Of a stretch of DNA of 64,000 bases, positions 101-17,391 are shown piece by piece. The notes beneath the pieces are model-generated. The model was not told the origin of the DNA. It made no database searches and saw only the letters and a program-made list of their open reading frames with translations. This DNA comes from Deltaproteobacteria bacterium (GTDB lineage Bacteria; Myxococcota_A; UBA9160; UBA6930). The stretch lies in the NCBI GenBank assembly GCA_029261795.1, contig JAJDAP010000034.1, positions 9,858 through 73,857 of the forward strand, read 5' to 3'. Position numbers and translations under genes: made by a program. Within the stretch, counting starts at the first letter, position 1, and each line of letters opens with the position of its first letter.

Positions 101-126
101 TACGGAAGAGTGGCGGGATCGTGACC
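101..126 (-). promoter_or_regulatory. Putative ECF promoter copy 1: GGTCAC-N16-CGTA
   Basis: Minus strand reads GGTCAC gatcccgccactcttc CGTA; -10 ends 34 nt before the TTG at 67. Confidence 0.75.
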
Positions 127-161: not shown

Positions 162-878
162 TCAGGTTCCGGAGAAAAACGCCCGAGCCTGGATGGCGCT
201 GGTGACACCCAGGTAGCCGCCGGCAGCCGTCCCGGCGATCCAAGCAGCGAAGACCCAGACTGAGTTGTCTACCGATTGGAGAGCTACGCCGGGCAACAGC
301 AGGAGGAACATCGCCGCTGCGGGAATCATCGGCCGGGCCAACTGACCGCGCCCGACGCCCAGCACCAAAAATACGGAAGCCGCGCCGATCAAGAGCGTCG
401 CGACCAGACCGAAGCAGAACGCACTCGCGGGTAGGCCGGCGACGTCGAAGATCCGCCTCCCCAGATCGGTTGCGGTCCACCAGTTCAGAAAGTGCTGGTC
501 CGCGCACGCGGCCCCGCATATTCCAGCAATCCCGAGACCCAGGAGTGCCACAGAGGCGGAATGCGAGAGGGGTAGCGAAGGCGTACGCACTCCGAGAAAC
601 GCAATCGCGAAGCTCACGACCAGCAATCCGGCCCATACCATACTGAAGACCGTGACATGCCACGGTGGGTGGTGATCAAAGGGGTGTCCCGAGAGCAGCA
701 GCGTGACGCCGATCGCACCAACGACGCCCGCGACTCCTGCCGCAACCAGCAGCCGAGCCGTGCGACCGCCCCGGAGTTCGACATCGCTCCTGATCGCCGA
801 GAGGATGCCCGAACGGACACCGTCTCGAACCTCGGACCGGCGGCTGTCCTTCTCCATTCGCGAACCTACCTCGGTCAC
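162..878 (-). CDS. Multi-pass membrane protein, putative anti-sigma factor / metal sensor
   Basis: Directly downstream of the ECF sigma gene; about 6-7 hydrophobic segments; motifs HPFDHHPPWH and CGAACADQH; GTG start. Confidence 0.65.
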   Translation of the reverse strand: MTEVGSRMEKDSRRSEVRDGVRSGILSAIRSDVELRGGRTARLLVAAGVAGVVGAIGVTLLLSGHPFDHHPPWHVTVFSMVWAGLLVVSFAIAFLGVRTPSLPLSHSASVALLGLGIAGICGAACADQHFLNWWTATDLGRRIFDVAGLPASAFCFGLVATLLIGAASVFLVLGVGRGQLARPMIPAAAMFLLLLPGVALQSVDNSVWVFAAWIAGTAAGGYLGVTSAIQARAFFSGT

Positions 879-899: not shown

Positions 900-1481
900 C
901 TATCCAACCGGGAGCCCGAAGGCTCCATCTGGTCCCACCGACGCACGCAGCCTTCGGATCGCACGGGAGGCTGTCTTCTTGACGGCATCGACGGACTTGC
1001 CAAGATGGTTTGCAACCTCCGCGTATCCGACTCCATCGACCTTGGCGGCGAGCAGAACGTAACGCTCTTCGTTCGAGAGGAATTGCAGCAGTTGCATCGA
1101 CTGTTCGCGATCCGCCACTTCCCCCTCAGCGTTGCGTTGCTCAGCCCTCGGCTCACGGTCCTCGATCGAGAACTCATGGTGGCGAAAGGCACGTCGGTGG
1201 TCATCGACGAGTAGCCGGTTCGCGATCTGGAAGAACCAGGGGGTGAAAGGCCGATCGGAGTCATATCGATCCCGCGCCCGATGGATGCGCAGGAACAACT
1301 CCTGGTAGAGATCCTCGGCGCGCTCGGAAGATCCGGTTCGTTTGAGGAAGAAGGCGTAGGCCCGTGGTTCGTAGCGCCGAAACAGTTCGTCGAACGCGTC
1401 GCCGTCGCCGTCGCCGTAGTGCGCCATGAGCGTTTCATCTGACAGATCCCTCTGCTGCGCGAATCGTGCTGTATCTGACAT
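900..1481 (-). CDS. ECF (sigma-70 group 4) RNA polymerase sigma factor
   Basis: DETLMAHY..DAFDELFRRY, AEDLYQELFLRI, PFTPWFFQIANRLLVD (sigma2), YAEVANHLGKSVDAVKKTASRA (sigma4 HTH); start moved to ATG 1481 with AGGAGG RBS. Confidence 0.93.
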   Translation of the reverse strand: MSDTARFAQQRDLSDETLMAHYGDGDGDAFDELFRRYEPRAYAFFLKRTGSSERAEDLYQELFLRIHRARDRYDSDRPFTPWFFQIANRLLVDDHRRAFRHHEFSIEDREPRAEQRNAEGEVADREQSMQLLQFLSNEERYVLLAAKVDGVGYAEVANHLGKSVDAVKKTASRAIRRLRASVGPDGAFGLPVG

Positions 1482-1643
1482 ACGACCTCCTCTCGCGAAC
1501 GGTGACGAGAAAACGGCGATGCACATTGCGTGCCGCTGTGTGTAGCCCGCGCCCGCGAGCGCAGGGCGTTCGTAGGTGCGTCAGTTTGGCATAAGCCAAT
1601 GACCGGCGTGGCTTTCTGACCCATTCCTCGCCGCGGGGACGCA

Positions 1644-2900: not shown

Positions 2901-2927
2901 GGTCACCTCCGAGCGCGCGAGGCCGTA
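2901..2927 (+). promoter_or_regulatory. Putative ECF promoter copy 2: GGTCAC-N17-CGTA
   Basis: GGTCAC ctccgagcgcgcgaggc CGTA; 72 nt before ATG 2999; -35 overlaps the right arm of a perfect 20-bp palindrome (2885-2904). Confidence 0.72.
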
Positions 2928-2998: not shown

Positions 2999-3349
2999 AT
3001 GAGAACCGTTATCGCACTAGCCCTGTTCGTGGGGGCCGTGGCCCTGGTGCCGGCCTTCGCACTCGCGGGGAGCGACTCCCGGTCGGTCGAGCAGTTCGCA
3101 GTCGAGAAGGCGGAGACGCCGGAGGAGCACGCGGACCTGGAACGGCACTACCGCTCGTTGGCGGAAGAAGCGCGCGGACACGTACGCCACCACGAGAAGA
3201 TGGGAAGCTCCTACCGAATAGGCAAGCTGCACAACCGGCAGCGTATGGAGCGCCACTGCAAGAAAATCGCCGAGAGCTACGCCAGCACGGCCAAGGAATA
3301 CGAGGCACTCGCCGACCTCCACAAGGACGAGGCGAGGCAGAGCGAGTAA
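2999..3349 (+). CDS. Small secreted His-rich helical protein, putative periplasmic metal-binding protein
   Basis: Sec signal (..VPAFA); 8 His, 2 Met and 1 Cys in the mature part (EHADLERHY, GHVRHHEKM, MERHC, LHKD); AAGGAG RBS. Confidence 0.7.
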   Translation: MRTVIALALFVGAVALVPAFALAGSDSRSVEQFAVEKAETPEEHADLERHYRSLAEEARGHVRHHEKMGSSYRIGKLHNRQRMERHCKKIAESYASTAKEYEALADLHKDEARQSE

Positions 3350-5226: not shown

Positions 5227-5252
5227 TACGGGAGCGGCGTCGCCCTGTGACT
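5227..5252 (-). promoter_or_regulatory. Putative ECF promoter copy 3: AGTCAC-N16-CGTA
   Basis: Minus strand AGTCAC agggcgacgccgctcc CGTA; 38 nt before ATG 5189. Confidence 0.75.
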
Positions 5253-5327
5253 TCGAATGTCGTGGGGGAGCGTCCGCGGCGTCGCCTCTGCAGGCCGGTC
5301 GGCGGGTGCCGGCTGCACTTTTTCTCC

Positions 5328-5354
5328 AGTCACCAGATCGACCCGGATGCCGTA
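5328..5354 (+). promoter_or_regulatory. Putative ECF promoter copy 4 (mtrAB): AGTCAC-N17-CGTA
   Basis: AGTCAC cagatcgacccggatgc CGTA; 63 nt before ATG 5417. Confidence 0.78.
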
Positions 5355-8513: not shown

Positions 8514-10040
8514 TCACGATCCTCCATCGGGACGCTTCGCGGGAAGCACCTCGTAGACGATCGCGGTACAGAAACTCAGCATGATGCCCGCGATGAAGAT
8601 CAACGGGCTGTAGGGAAGCACGGGGTCCTGGTAGACCTCGGCGCCCACCCCCGCGGAGCCGGCGAAACCGACAATGGCGAGTGTCAGCCCGACCGCGAGC
8701 GTCGCCCCCGCGATCCACGTTCGGCGCGTCTCCGACTCAGGGGCCTCGTCTGGCGCCCCGTCTTCAGGATGCGCGAGCGGCACGATCGGAAAGATCTTGG
8801 CGAAGAGCAGGAACGCCAGGCTCGCCAACCCGAACAGGCCCGCGACCACACTGAGCTCCACCCAGTTCGGAACGTAGTGGCCCTTCGCGTAGGGGAGCAG
8901 CATCCCGTCCGTCTGCGATGGGACGACGATCAGCAAGCGTTTCAGGATCGCACCGACGTTGATCACGGCTGCTGCTGCCACGTACCAGCCGATCCGCGTC
9001 GTCCGGCTCAGGAACCGCCAGAGCAGCAGACCGAACCCAAGCGCCAGGGTGCCTACCGTGGACCAGAACATCCAGGCGTACGAGCCGGACACCAGCGAGT
9101 GCTCGAGCGCGCGTTCGGCCGTGGGTGCCGCGTAGCCCGCGGTCAGCTCCTCCACGCCCATCAGGTAGAGATAGGCGAGCGTCAGGACACACTGGAAGTT
9201 CCCCAGGGTCCGGAACGCGGCCGCCTCGATCACGTCCTCCAGATGCATGAGCTTTCGGGCGGAGGCTGCAATGAGGGTCAGCATGGCCAGGCCCGAGGCC
9301 CCTGCGAGAACCACGAAGCTCGGCGCCTGGAGCGCGCTGAACCAGCCCGGCCGACCCGCCACGATCCCGAACACGAAGCCGAGCGTCGAATGGGCAACGA
9401 CCAGGAGCGGGAGGATGAGCAGGGAGAGCCAGAAACTCACCACGCGGTGCCGCGCCGCCTCGGCATGCGTGCCGCGGAACCCGCTTCCCCACAGACGGTG
9501 GAGCCACCTCCAACGCGAGGGAACGCTGGCGCACGTCGCCGCACACGCGCGGCCCGCGAGGAAGAAGTAGACGAGACTGGCGAACAGGTAGCCGGCGACG
9601 ACCAGCGTGAACGTTCCGAAGAAGGGTGATGACGGCCTCGCGTAGAGCGGGAGGTACAGCAGGCCATGCAACGGCCGGCCGAGATCGGCCATGATGGTCA
9701 TCCCGCCCATCAACAGCGCAATGATTGTGAGGAACTCGGCCATCCGCGTGAGTGGCCGGAGTTCCGGTAGTGGAAACAGCCGTACCAGCGCCGCCGCGCT
9801 GATCCCGGCAAAACTCACGCCCACGAAGTAGATGTCGAATGCGACGTAGAGCCCCCATGCCGCGCCGCCCTGGCCGATCGTGCGAAGACCGGTCGCGACC
9901 AGTCCCTCGCGAAGCTGAACGGAATAGGCCCACGCGCCCCACAGCGCCAGCGATGCGGAAACCCCGACGGCGGCCAACCAGTATCGGCCCGGGCGATCGA
10001 GCCCGAGGGCGTCCCTGCGTTCCTGGGTAGTTTGCTCCAC
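8514..10040 (-). CDS. NrfD/PsrC-family quinone-interacting membrane subunit (QrcD/ActC-like)
   Basis: WGLYVAFDIYFVG, MADLGRP..., SSPFF, HSTLGFVFG...RPGWFS, Y.PNWVEL motifs; about 10 TM plus 2 extra C-terminal TM. Confidence 0.9.
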   Translation of the reverse strand: MEQTTQERRDALGLDRPGRYWLAAVGVSASLALWGAWAYSVQLREGLVATGLRTIGQGGAAWGLYVAFDIYFVGVSFAGISAAALVRLFPLPELRPLTRMAEFLTIIALLMGGMTIMADLGRPLHGLLYLPLYARPSSPFFGTFTLVVAGYLFASLVYFFLAGRACAATCASVPSRWRWLHRLWGSGFRGTHAEAARHRVVSFWLSLLILPLLVVAHSTLGFVFGIVAGRPGWFSALQAPSFVVLAGASGLAMLTLIAASARKLMHLEDVIEAAAFRTLGNFQCVLTLAYLYLMGVEELTAGYAAPTAERALEHSLVSGSYAWMFWSTVGTLALGFGLLLWRFLSRTTRIGWYVAAAAVINVGAILKRLLIVVPSQTDGMLLPYAKGHYVPNWVELSVVAGLFGLASLAFLLFAKIFPIVPLAHPEDGAPDEAPESETRRTWIAGATLAVGLTLAIVGFAGSAGVGAEVYQDPVLPYSPLIFIAGIMLSFCTAIVYEVLPAKRPDGGS

Positions 10041-14235: not shown

Positions 14236-14279
14236 CTTCCCTCCCCGAGCGAATCGCTCCATGGAGATCCTGCCGTGTA

Positions 14280-14306
14280 TACGGCACGAGCGTGCCGGAA
14301 GTGACT
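14280..14306 (-). promoter_or_regulatory. Putative ECF promoter copy 5 (cytochrome/Qrc-like operon): AGTCAC-N17-CGTA
   Basis: Minus strand AGTCAC ttccggcacgctcgtgc CGTA; 45 nt before ATG 14235. Confidence 0.78.
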
Positions 14307-14314
14307 CCGATAGG

Positions 14315-14341
14315 AGTCACCAGATTTCCCTGGCCCCCGTA
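14315..14341 (+). promoter_or_regulatory. Putative ECF promoter copy 6 (gdhA): AGTCAC-N17-CGTA
   Basis: AGTCAC cagatttccctggcccc CGTA; 20 nt before TTG 14361; shares AGTCACCAGAT with copy 4. Confidence 0.78.
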
Positions 14342-14360
14342 TTGTGGAGTGGAGAACTCC

Positions 14361-15635
14361 TTGGACGCACCCATTCGATCGACTGACGAGACACTTTGCC
14401 ACTGTCAGGAGGACCAGGCGCACTTCCTCGAGCGCGCCTTCGAGCAGCTGGGGCTCGACGACTCCCGGCGCCGGTTGCTCCTTCATTCCTTCCGTGAGAT
14501 ATCCGTGCAGATCCCGCTCGAAGTGCAGCGCAACGGACAACGCGAGGTCGAGACATTCACGGGCGTCCGCGTGCAGCACAACCACGCGAGGGGTCCGTTC
14601 AAGGGAGGGCTTCGTTTCCACCCACTGGTGGAGCAGGGAGAGGTTCGCGCGCTCGCGCAGCTGATGACCTGGAAGTCTGCGTTGGCCGACATCCCGTTCG
14701 GTGGTGCCAAGGGCGGGATCGCGGTGGATCCTCGCCAGCTGTCCACTGGTGAACTGGAAACGTTGACCAAGCGGTTCACCCAGAAGATGGCGCCCGTGAT
14801 CGGCGTCCACCGGGACATTCCTGCTCCGGATGTCGGCACCAGCCCGCAGGTCATGGCATGGATCTTCGAGGAGTACAGCAAGACGAACGGTCACACGCCC
14901 GCGATCGTCACGGGCAAACCTGTCGAACTGGGGGGAGCCGAGGGCCGCCTCGAAGCGACCGGCCACGGTGTTGCGTTCCTCACCGCGCGGGCGTGTCTCG
15001 GCCGCGACATCGACATCGCGGGAGCTCGTGTTGCTGTTCAGGGGTTCGGCAACGTGGGCATGCATACCGCGCGGCGTCTCGCCGAACTCGGGGCACTCGT
15101 GATCGCGGTCTCGGATGTCGACGGCGGCGTCATCTGCGAATCCGGCATCGATGTCCTCGAGGCAAGCGCCCATGTCGCCGAGTGCGGAAGCCTCGCGGGA
15201 TTTCGCGGAGGGGACCCGATTACCAACGCGGAGTTGCTTTCGCTTCCCTGCGACGTCCTGATTCCGGCCGCCCTCGATGGTTCGATCAACTGTGACAACG
15301 AGCCGGGCGTCCGCGCCGGGCTGGTCGTCGAAGCCGCGAACATGCCGGTCACCCACGGCGCGGACGCAGCCCTGAAAGAGAGGGGAGTCGAAGTAGTTCC
15401 GGATGTGCTCGCCAACGTCGGAGGCGTCGCGGCCTCCTACTTCGAGTGGGTCCAGAACCTGCAGCAGTTGCCGTGGAGCCGGGATGCACTCCTAGGTCGC
15501 CTCGAAGAGCACCTGGCTCGTGCCTTCGACACAGTGATCGCATTGCGAGAACATCGCGGTGTCGACCTTCGAACGGCCGCCTATGAGCTGGCCGTAGCGC
15601 GCGTGCTGCGCGCCGTCGAACTTCGCGGATTTTGA
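14361..15635 (+). CDS. gdhA: Glu/Leu/Phe/Val dehydrogenase (glutamate dehydrogenase)
   Basis: RVQHNHARGPFKGGLRFHP, MTWKSA, PFGGAKGG, DIPAPDVGT, VTGKP, QGFGNVG, EAANMP, SYFEWVQN; TTG start with GGAG RBS. Confidence 0.93.
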   Translation: MDAPIRSTDETLCHCQEDQAHFLERAFEQLGLDDSRRRLLLHSFREISVQIPLEVQRNGQREVETFTGVRVQHNHARGPFKGGLRFHPLVEQGEVRALAQLMTWKSALADIPFGGAKGGIAVDPRQLSTGELETLTKRFTQKMAPVIGVHRDIPAPDVGTSPQVMAWIFEEYSKTNGHTPAIVTGKPVELGGAEGRLEATGHGVAFLTARACLGRDIDIAGARVAVQGFGNVGMHTARRLAELGALVIAVSDVDGGVICESGIDVLEASAHVAECGSLAGFRGGDPITNAELLSLPCDVLIPAALDGSINCDNEPGVRAGLVVEAANMPVTHGADAALKERGVEVVPDVLANVGGVAASYFEWVQNLQQLPWSRDALLGRLEEHLARAFDTVIALREHRGVDLRTAAYELAVARVLRAVELRGF

Positions 15636-15711
15636 GGGTTCCAAGGACTGCGACGCAGCCACAAGCCGGTAACCCTCGAAGTTCGTGGCCCCGACTCGAT
15701 CCCGCGCGATG

Positions 15712-16380
15712 CTATTTGGCTGGCGCTTGGTCCGGGGGCGCCCGGAAGACCGCCAGGGTCGCCATCCCAGCGGCAGAGACGCTCATCCGTTCCAGGTTCG
15801 GGAGAGTTCGAATCGGCTCACGGTCGACAACGCGATAGGAGAAGGGGTTGCCGATTGCAGTGACGACCGCGAGCAGGAGCCTGGAGCGGGGCGGGGTAAA
15901 GAAGACGAAGACGGCCGTTCCTCCCGGCGCCAGCTTTCGCAACGCATCGCGAACGGTTGCGTCCGGCGTATCGAGGTGCGAGAGGAGCCAGCTGGAAACG
16001 ACGAAGTCGAAGGTGCCGCCGACGGCCTGCAGGTCGGTCGCGTCGCCGATGCGTAGCTCGATCCTGTCGTCCGCTTGCGCTCGGGCTCGAGCTCGCACCA
16101 GCATCTCTTCGCTCGAGTCGATCCCGAGGTAGGAACCGAACCCGCGGGTCCAGCGGAACAGGCGTTCGATGTTGATCCCGGTACCAGGAGCCAGCTCGAG
16201 GATTCGCGATTCGGCACCGATCCGCTCTCGAAAGAGCTGGTCGAGATCTTCCTCGATGGGACGAGTCCAGCGACCCCAGACGGCTCGGAACGCGTCATAG
16301 AAGCGCGCGAACCAGCTGTACACACGGCGGACTCGGTCCAGCTGGGGAGGGTTCACGGTTGCGTTGGTCCCGTTCGTCAT
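15712..16380 (-). CDS. Class I SAM-dependent methyltransferase (UbiE-like)
   Basis: ILELAPGTG motif I, GIDSSEEML, FDFVVSSWLLSH, LAPGG. Confidence 0.85.
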   Translation of the reverse strand: MTNGTNATVNPPQLDRVRRVYSWFARFYDAFRAVWGRWTRPIEEDLDQLFRERIGAESRILELAPGTGINIERLFRWTRGFGSYLGIDSSEEMLVRARARAQADDRIELRIGDATDLQAVGGTFDFVVSSWLLSHLDTPDATVRDALRKLAPGGTAVFVFFTPPRSRLLLAVVTAIGNPFSYRVVDREPIRTLPNLERMSVSAAGMATLAVFRAPPDQAPAK

Positions 16381-17039
16381 GGGAGTTGGTGCCTCGCCGG
16401 CTGCGCAGCGCGCTTCCAGCTGGGAATCCAGCGAGGCGTCACACGGGCGTACTCGGCGTAGGCCGGACCGAACTCCGTGCGCGCCTCCTCCTCTTCACGC
16501 AGTGCGAATCGCACGTACATGTGAACGAGGATTGGAAACATCACGAGCGTGATCAGTGTCGGCCACTGGAAGAGGAAGCCGGCAAGGATCGCGATGAATC
16601 CCACGTACTGGGGATGACGAATGCGCGAATAGGCTCCGGTCGTGGCGAGTCCACCTTCGCGTTGGGCGCGGTAGAGGATTGGCCAGGCGACCGAGAGCAG
16701 CCAGAAGCCACCGCCGATCAGGACATAGCTGAGCACATGGAAGGGATCGAAATGGGGGTCGCCCTCCCAACCGAGAAGCGTGTGCCAGAGATGGCCAGCT
16801 TCATGCGAAAAGATGTCGAGTTGTGGGAAGTGCTGCCCGAACCAGCCGGAGAGCAGATAGATGGTGAGCGGGAAGCCGTACATCTCGACGAACAACGCCA
16901 CGAGGAATGCGGAGAAGGCCCCGAACGAACGCCAGTCACGTGAGCTCTGCGGCTTCGCAAAACTGAAGGCGAACAGGATGAAGATGGCCGCGTTGAGCAC
17001 GACCACGGACCACAGGCCGTAGGCCGATTCGTGACTCAC
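16377..17039 (-). CDS. Isoprenylcysteine carboxyl methyltransferase (ICMT/PEMT)-family membrane protein
   Basis: FVEMYGFPLTIYLL, TTGAYSRIRHPQYVG, EEEE..FG.AY.EY; family commonly found beside copper-resistance genes. Confidence 0.88.
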   Translation of the reverse strand: MSHESAYGLWSVVVLNAAIFILFAFSFAKPQSSRDWRSFGAFSAFLVALFVEMYGFPLTIYLLSGWFGQHFPQLDIFSHEAGHLWHTLLGWEGDPHFDPFHVLSYVLIGGGFWLLSVAWPILYRAQREGGLATTGAYSRIRHPQYVGFIAILAGFLFQWPTLITLVMFPILVHMYVRFALREEEEARTEFGPAYAEYARVTPRWIPSWKRAAQPARHQLP

Positions 17040-17296
17040 GGTTCCTGGCCTGGCTGCGAGGCGTCACCCCCAGTGGCGTGCGATCCGGGACCCTTGTGCC
17101 CGCGGTGCATGAACACGTGCATCAGTGGACAGATCGCGAGAATCATCCATGGCAGATACGCGATCACGTGTGCCCGGTGCTCGGCCCACAGGAAGTAGGC
17201 TGCGGCAGCCGCAAACACACCAAAAGCGATGCGTCTGGAGAGCGCGCCGTCCGCGCCGGGCTCCTGGGTCACAGGGCTGGACCGCAGCTCATCCAT
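17036..17296 (-). CDS. DUF2933-family small membrane protein
   Basis: AEHRAH...LPWMILAICPLMHVFMHRGH signature; start moved to ATG 17296. Confidence 0.85.
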   Translation of the reverse strand: MDELRSSPVTQEPGADGALSRRIAFGVFAAAAAYFLWAEHRAHVIAYLPWMILAICPLMHVFMHRGHKGPGSHATGGDASQPGQEP

Positions 17297-17334
17297 CGGG
17301 TCCCCGGAAATCTTTGTTGCCCATCGTCCGAGAC

Positions 17335-17361
17335 TACGGCGCACGCCCCCGGGTGGTGACC
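17335..17361 (-). promoter_or_regulatory. Putative ECF promoter copy 7: GGTCAC-N17-CGTA
   Basis: Minus strand GGTCAC cacccgggggcgtgcgc CGTA; 39 nt before ATG 17296. Confidence 0.78.
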
Positions 17362-17365
17362 GATC

Positions 17366-17391
17366 GGTCACGATTCCGGGTCTTGAACGTA
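17366..17391 (+). promoter_or_regulatory. Putative ECF promoter copy 8 (cus operon): GGTCAC-N16-CGTA
   Basis: GGTCAC gattccgggtcttgaa CGTA; 46 nt before GTG 17437; shares GGTCACGAT.CCG with copy 1. Confidence 0.78.

Follow-up and report, generated by a model that had tools for sequence, protein, structure and literature searches.

The 64,000-nucleotide stretch of DNA analysed here, referred to as the window, corresponds to positions 9,858 to 73,857 of contig JAJDAP010000034.1 (assembly GCA_029261795.1) of an uncultured member of the Myxococcota and carries two palindromes, each of which is located between a pair of divergent genes. Both palindromes are probably a by-product of two independent promoters of a single extracytoplasmic function (ECF) sigma factor, which stand back to back and would be co-induced rather than alternated. 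The first palindrome, GTGACTCCGATAGGAGTCAC (site 1), has arms of 8 bp around a centre of 4 nt, and the second, GTGACCGATCGGTCAC (site 2), is a perfect 16-mer; both lie exactly where a preliminary description of this DNA had placed them (Table 1).

Predicted promoters at the two palindromes

The preliminary description had interpreted the arms of both palindromes as -35 elements of divergent promoters, which agrees with the presence of a CGTA element 16 or 17 nt (N16/17) outward from each GTCAC arm. The spacers are N17 and N17 at site 1 and N17 and N16 at site 2. At each site, the cores match the motif exactly on either strand, and the elements do not overlap. The distances of 4 and 8 bp that were initially given are right if counted from hexamer to hexamer; from pentamer to pentamer, the gap amounts to 6 bp at site 2, the smallest of all genomes examined, and to 10 bp at site 1, where three further base pairs are symmetric on each side. 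The two CGTA elements are 54 bp apart at site 1 and 49 bp apart at site 2. The site-2 intergenic region is identical base for base in four independent sample assemblies and thus not an assembly artefact. The 90-aa protein encoded next to it had no relative among the genome contigs searched, and exact protein matches came only from identical contigs of the same sample series, present in runs SRR15505513, -16, -17 and -18, which bear on the assembly but not on conservation. No sigma-70-like promoters and no Rfam families were found in the two intergenic regions of 125 and 140 bp, and a position weight matrix of the flanks, with which the four promoters were to be graded, contained only about 3 bits and gave no discrimination.

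All four flanking genes are directed outward and each is preceded by a plausible ribosome-binding site; the chosen gene starts were reproduced by an independent gene caller on other assemblies. The gene for glutamate dehydrogenase (GDH) begins with the start codon TTG at 14361, and relatives also have GDH behind the same motif. At ECF promoters, transcription generally starts about 6-9 nt past the -10 element. If the start is placed about 9 nt past the A of CGTA, the operon encoding the cytochrome c and the Qrc-like complex would be transcribed from near 14272 and the GDH gene from near 14349. On the same assumption, the paired predicted starts are separated by about 77 bp at site 1 and about 72 bp at site 2, and, relative to the first promoter, the second -35 pentamer would occupy approximately positions -45 to -49 at site 1 and -41 to -45 at site 2.

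Table 1. Coordinates of the features discussed in the text; positions refer to the window unless another locus is named.
Feature	Position	Strand	Details
Palindrome 1	14301..14320		GTGACTCC-GATA-GGAGTCAC; back-to-back -35 pentamers GTGAC 14301-14305 and GTCAC 14316-14320
Palindrome 2	17356..17371		GTGAC-CGATCG-GTCAC; back-to-back -35 pentamers, gap 6 bp
Predicted ECF promoter, cytochrome c and Qrc/ACIII-like operon	14280..14305	-	GTCAC 14305-14301, 17-nt spacer, CGTA 14283-14280 (TACG 14280-14283 when read forward)
Predicted ECF promoter, ELFV/glutamate dehydrogenase gene	14316..14341	+	GTCAC 14316-14320, 17-nt spacer, CGTA 14338-14341
Predicted ECF promoter, DUF2933 - ICMT-like - methyltransferase operon	17335..17360	-	GTCAC 17360-17356, 17-nt spacer, CGTA 17338-17335 (TACG 17335-17338 when read forward)
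Predicted ECF promoter, 90-aa membrane protein and cusCBA-like RND (resistance-nodulation-division) efflux operon	17367..17391	+	GTCAC 17367-17371, 16-nt spacer, CGTA 17388-17391
Site 1, left gene	start 14235	-	c-type cytochrome, first gene of a molybdopterin/4Fe-4S/NrfD operon
Site 1, right gene	start 14361	+	ELFV-family glutamate dehydrogenase
Site 2, left gene	start 17296	-	DUF2933, followed by ICMT-like and methyltransferase genes
Site 2, right gene	start 17437	+	90-aa membrane protein, followed by cusCBA-like genes
ECF sigma factor	900..1481	-	Sigma70_r2 and r4_2
Candidate anti-sigma factor	162..878	-	six-helix membrane protein of 238 aa, encoded directly after the sigma gene in every case
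Motif copy at the sigma gene	1481..1506	-	GTCAC-N17-CGT[ATG], overlaps the gene's own Shine-Dalgarno sequence and start codon
Third divergent pair	5227..5354	both	TACG 5227-5230 and GTGAC 5247-5251; GTCAC 5329-5333 and CGTA 5351-5354; no palindrome
Single motif copy	101..125	-	3' of the anti-sigma-like gene; toward a porin-like gene left of the window
Single motif copy	2902..2927	+	5' of the genes for a His-rich periplasmic 116-aa protein (2999-3349) and a TerB-domain protein
cusC tight pair, window	17360/17367		partner DUF2933; gap 6 bp
cusC tight pair, L017	7318/7326		partner K+ channel gene; gap 7 bp
cusC tight pair, L111	5728/5737		partner peri116-like gene; gap 8 bp
cusC tight pair, L109	1309/1318		partner upstream region of the sigma gene; gap 8 bp
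cusC tight pair, L049	5806/5818		partner anti-sigma-like paralogue; gap 11 bp
GDH pair, window			partner cytochrome c; gap 10 bp
GDH pair, G031			partner saccharopine-dehydrogenase-like gene; gap 11 bp
GDH pair, L021			partner peri116; gap 55 bp

In total, the 5.74-Mb assembly contains 44 copies of the motif GTCAC-N16/17-CGTA. Ten of these copies are located in the window, where about 0.5 would be expected, and nine of the ten fall within its first 17.4 kb. All nine copies of this 17-kb island have a spacer of N16 or N17, and the copies point toward start codons 19-70 nt downstream. The 34 copies outside the window look like background, as they apparently lie mostly in coding sequence and show the same three-base periodicity that is found at all spacings. 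With about 3e-6 background copies per bp and strand, the whole genome would be expected to contain about 0.002 divergent pairs whose gap is no larger than 13 bp, and two were seen. No conserved bases were found upstream of GTCAC.

The ECF sigma factor and its link to the motif

The sigma factor that most likely reads the motif is encoded near the left end of the window, and its best solved relatives are SigE and SigL (E ~1e-11). The protein encoded directly after it, which is a candidate anti-sigma factor, has no match in Pfam or NCBIfam, including no match to DUF1109. Orthologues of the sigma factor and its membrane partner (47-72% identity) are found in metagenome-assembled genomes (MAGs) of uncultured Myxococcota and "Deltaproteobacteria" and in metagenomes. 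Around these orthologues, 106 motif copies were counted in 497 kb of 35 genome loci (0.21/kb) and 147 copies in 440 kb of 80 metagenome loci (0.33/kb), compared with nine copies in 709 kb of 49 loci around unrelated ECF genes with a similar G+C content (0.013/kb) and 0.006/kb elsewhere in this genome. In Myxococcota MAGs and in metagenomes, the motif density near the sigma orthologues is hence about 17-26 times that near unrelated ECF genes. Across the orthologue loci, the spacer is N17 in 50 copies and N16 in 36. Since its form is close to that of the Caulobacter sigma-F site, GTCAC is read as the -35 and CGTA as the -10 element, and we infer that both depend on this sigma factor.

In addition, a motif copy is located at the sigma gene itself. 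An exact version of this copy (GTCAC-N16/17-CGT[ATG]) was found in 57 of 99 non-redundant sigma orthologues, and in 53 of these 57 the spacer contains a Shine-Dalgarno-like run; in each of the 16 cases examined, the ATG agreed with the frame of the sigma gene. A transcript begun at this copy would be without the first ATG, and the copy might serve as an internal promoter for a short sigma isoform or mediate negative feedback through blocking of the site. The survey of orthologue loci with this copy covered L014-L035, L039-L051 and L103-L182. An invariant Met is found 8-19 codons downstream of the copy, and codon use at the preceding Asp and Leu is biased (Asp GAT 57:29; Leu CTC 62/86). Two copies precede the sigma gene in L109 (1318, 1496), one of which lies over the start codon, and the other, about 180 nt upstream, is placed back to back with a cusC promoter at a gap of 8 bp.

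In relatives, the sigma gene usually diverges from the gene for the His-rich periplasmic 116-aa protein (e.g., L025 9826/9944 and L142 3401/3533), and the pentamer gaps between the two cluster at about 110-165 bp with a mode of about 131 bp. In the window, the gene for the 116-aa protein has moved about 1.4 kb away, past a Na+/H+ exchanger gene; the tandem sequence CGATCGCGATCG (2887-2901) is found directly upstream of its -35 element at 2902. The sigma/anti-sigma pair is patchy across the family and order. Since it was also not found in the one genome of the same genus that was examined, its distribution suggests that the island was gained and lost over time.

Divergent pairs in the window and in related genomes

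The third divergent pair of the window, described previously with a distance of 75 bp, is present: 75 bp separate its hexamers and 77 bp its pentamers. Its minus-strand copy (5251-5227) is located ahead of a lipoprotein-like gene and a K+ channel gene, and its plus-strand copy (5329-5354) ahead of genes for a multihaem cytochrome and an outer-membrane protein. Divergent arrangements are the rule in this regulon, and the pairs at the two palindromes are the compact end of a continuum. Of the 86 motif copies in the first set, about half (44) belong to divergent pairs. Gaps, given here and below from pentamer to pentamer, were pooled from the window, genomes of relatives and metagenome loci. Besides the 6 and 10 bp of the two palindromes, values of 7, 8, 8, 11, 11, 13, 19, 20, 21, 25, 26, 29, 29, 32, 40, 48, 55, 77, 78 and 92 bp were obtained; a broad group of 104-188 bp represents the sigma gene with its divergent neighbour, and the largest gap is 271 bp. 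The 8-bp bin from 6 to 13 bp contains eight pairs, compared with about ten pairs between 14 and 40 bp. None of the pooled pairs has a gap below 6 bp, even if one mismatch is allowed in one partner, and a single -35 pentamer common to both strands (GTSAC with CGTA on both sides) was found neither in the genome nor in any of the loci. From centre to centre, the pentamers of the tight pairs are 11, 12, 13, 13, 15, 16, 16 and 18 bp apart and reveal no helical phasing.

Eight pairs have gaps of no more than 13 bp, and a cusC-type efflux promoter takes part in five of them, with a different partner each time. The cus genes of L111 share 77-80% identity with those of the window. GDH promoters are likewise paired with different partners (Table 1). 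In L018 (4243-4301), two copies are convergent with their CGTA elements 8 nt apart, which may be due to chance or represent an antisense pair.

Possible interaction between the paired promoters

How would such pairs work? It is proposed that the sigma factor is released from its membrane partner, probably upon copper, metal or redox stress, and that the holoenzyme then binds each arm and transcribes outward. At site 1, this would lead to the expression of the cytochrome c/Qrc-like operon and GDH, and at site 2 to that of the DUF2933 operon and the 90-aa protein together with cusCBA. Both promoters of a pair would fire simultaneously and not alternately. Each polymerase of a tight pair would lose its upstream contacts, and the 6-bp minimum would be roughly the distance at which two sigma region-4 domains abut. 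At class II promoters, the helix-turn-helix (HTH) domains of activators sit beside sigma region 4, which makes it plausible that two region-4 domains can be accommodated next to each other. The distribution of gaps fits a deletion-driven compaction down to the shortest distance that leaves both promoters functional; compaction rather than a conserved switch is favoured because gaps pile up just above 6 bp and because cus is the promoter most often found in tight pairs.

The preliminary description had instead suggested mutual occlusion or a balancing switch. According to this proposal, the abutting -35 elements could not be occupied together, thereby setting the ratio or a cell-to-cell alternation of cus versus DUF2933 and of the Qrc-like operon versus GDH. 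The short distances between the pentamers (6 and 10 bp) and between the predicted starts (about 72-77 bp) are in line with such a mechanism, as the upstream contacts of one polymerase would land on the other promoter, and the absence of pairs closer than 6 bp indicates that steric limits matter in this range. Competition between polymerases has been documented at bidirectional promoters, where it was seen only with one direction strongly activated (PMC12825309); however, those promoters have overlapping -10 elements and starts about 18 bp apart and thus a different geometry. Moreover, all genes concerned belong to one stress island, and alternation would have no obvious purpose because both promoters would answer to the same sigma factor. 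Conservation of the spacing in orthologous loci, which had been put forward as a check, was not observed: gaps vary from 6 to 13 bp and beyond, the helical phase is as variable (11-18 bp from centre to centre) and the partner genes differ between genomes. Throttling of cus, the key efflux operon and the one most often found in tight pairs, would also be costly. Mutual occlusion is therefore regarded as unlikely; the layout appears tidy but fairly ordinary, and the compared sequences lend no support to a switch.

In a bolder version, the abutting -35 elements with gaps of 6-13 bp would be a selected coupling device, in which two holoenzymes on a unit of about 75 bp touch, exclude or supercoil-activate each other and thereby set the ratio of cus to its partner or a cell-to-cell pattern; the additional 3-bp symmetry, seen in this genome only, could in that case indicate another symmetric recognition event. 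This is improbable as well. Abutting promoters could also help each other through the negative supercoiling that arises behind each transcribing polymerase (twin-domain effect) or through a direct contact between the two upstream-facing sigma region-4/flap modules, so that tight pairing would be selected. Coupling by supercoiling is established for ilvY/ilvC and dmp Pr/Po (PMC4469952, PMC5175336), and the pairs studied here are over-represented at short gaps (eight at 6-13 bp versus about ten at 14-40 bp) and recur with new partners. Nevertheless, a deletion bias down to a steric floor equally predicts the accumulation of short gaps, and the absence of helical phasing speaks against a defined contact between proteins; such positive coupling is considered quite unlikely.

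Operator versus promoter geometry

A last alternative, that a dimeric transcription factor binds the palindromes besides or instead of the sigma factor and that the CGTA elements are incidental, is very unlikely. It would account for the symmetry of both palindromes past the GTCAC core, with arms of 8 bp, and for the stem-loop of site 1, which is more stable than those of shuffled sequences (z = -4.7). Yet a regulator with a fixed geometry is hardly compatible with half-sites that are 6, 7, 8, 10, 11 or 13 bp apart. An operator would be expected to have a constant half-site spacing, which differs by 4 bp between the two sites of the window (6 and 10 bp) and varies further in relatives (7, 8, 8, 11, 11 and 13 bp); the additional symmetric bases are also not the same (GGA versus TCG), and tight pairs of relatives are not palindromic past GTCAC. 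Likewise, neither further genome copies nor a nearby regulator were found. Among all occurrences of GTGAC-N6-GTCAC and GTGAC-N10-GTCAC in the genome, only the two palindromes have a CGTA element on either side, and the genome-wide palindrome counts are on a par with those of a control with reversed orientation. No HTH regulator apart from the ECF sigma factor was found at positions 1-34.5 kb of the window, and neither the island nor the 10 kb past it encodes a DNA-binding regulator besides this factor and the anti-sigma-like protein. In addition, CGATCG, which is the filler of site 2 (17361-17366) and is also found at 2887-2901 of the window, is over-represented 4.6-fold genome-wide, with 9013 copies compared to about 1964 expected from the base composition. 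The earlier view that these are two outward-facing -35 elements and not an operator is thus borne out: CGTA is always found at N16/17, the half-site spacing varies, GTGAC..GTCAC palindromes are not enriched in the genome and a regulator gene is missing nearby.

Two observations weigh against the interpretation as independent, co-induced promoters. First, both palindromes of the window are symmetric for 3 bp past GTCAC, which is the case in none of the six other tight pairs. The empirical probability of this extra symmetry in this genome is about 0.023 per site, and that of finding it in two of eight tight pairs is about 0.014, calculated post hoc. The promoter model leaves the extra symmetry unexplained; it is probably due to chance, and an unknown additional factor is given small weight. 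Second, the position of the sigma gene's own copy over the start codon is odd for a simple autoregulated promoter.

Other origins of the longer arms were considered. An extended -35 motif was ruled out, as no base upstream of GTCAC is conserved, and so was an origin from a repeat or mobile element, as the palindromes are unique in the genome. Cruciform extrusion is unlikely, with stems of 8 and 6 bp and -8.4 and -4.9 kcal/mol per strand; the hairpin of site 2 is no better than those of shuffled sequences.

Comparison with known systems

From sequence, this analysis delineates a regulon in uncultured Myxococcota that would be controlled by an uncharacterised ECF sigma factor and that comprises cus-type efflux, multihaem and Qrc-like electron carriers, GDH and DUF2933. 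It also shows how an apparent operator can be explained by promoter geometry. The 6-bp floor provides an estimate from natural sequences of the closest back-to-back placement of two ECF holoenzymes and may be of interest to those who build compact ECF circuits. The palindromes themselves open up no new mechanism.

Back-to-back is the commonest configuration of divergent promoters (PMC5175336). The ilvY/ilvC promoters and the Pr/Po promoters of the Pseudomonas dmp system resemble the pairs described here in that the two promoters lie on opposite strands, do not overlap and have their upstream ends turned toward each other. A further back-to-back divergent example is PR/PRM of phage lambda; a literature search on PR/PRM interference and on the motif itself yielded nothing useful. 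The known pairs combine two sigma-70 promoters or a sigma-54 with a sigma-70 promoter, and their coupling was shown by experiment, whereas the promoters described here are predicted from sequence and would both depend on the same ECF sigma factor. Furthermore, and unlike in ilvY/ilvC and dmp, the -35 elements are found within 6-10 bp of each other with practically no intervening DNA.

Similarities also exist to the bidirectional promoters of Warman, Grainger and colleagues (PMC12825309; bioRxiv 10.1101/2020.01.31.928960), in which the symmetry of a promoter element likewise leads to divergent transcription and to possible competition between polymerases. Those promoters have a common pseudo-symmetric -10 element and starts about 18 bp apart, and binding is exclusive. 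In contrast, the symmetry described here resides in the -35 elements, the -10 elements are 54 and 49 bp apart and no element is common to both promoters; at neither site do -10 elements overlap or predicted starts lie about 18 bp apart.

The closest parallel for the sigma factor is the ECF16-type sigma-F/NrsF system of Caulobacter, whose site GTAACC-N16-CGAA was defined experimentally (PMC3511200). Both systems have a six-helix membrane partner, a small, local regulon linked to heavy metals and a site of the form GTnAC ... CGnA at N16. They differ in that the sigma factor described here has low identity to characterised ECF sigma factors, its partner lacks a match to DUF1109, and its regulon consists of cus, multihaem cytochromes, the Qrc-like complex and GDH; tight divergent pairs have not been reported for sigma-F. 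The back-to-back pairs thus belong to a known class of divergent promoters, found here in a newly delineated ECF regulon; the 6-bp floor and the repeated occurrence of tight pairs are new comparative observations of modest weight.

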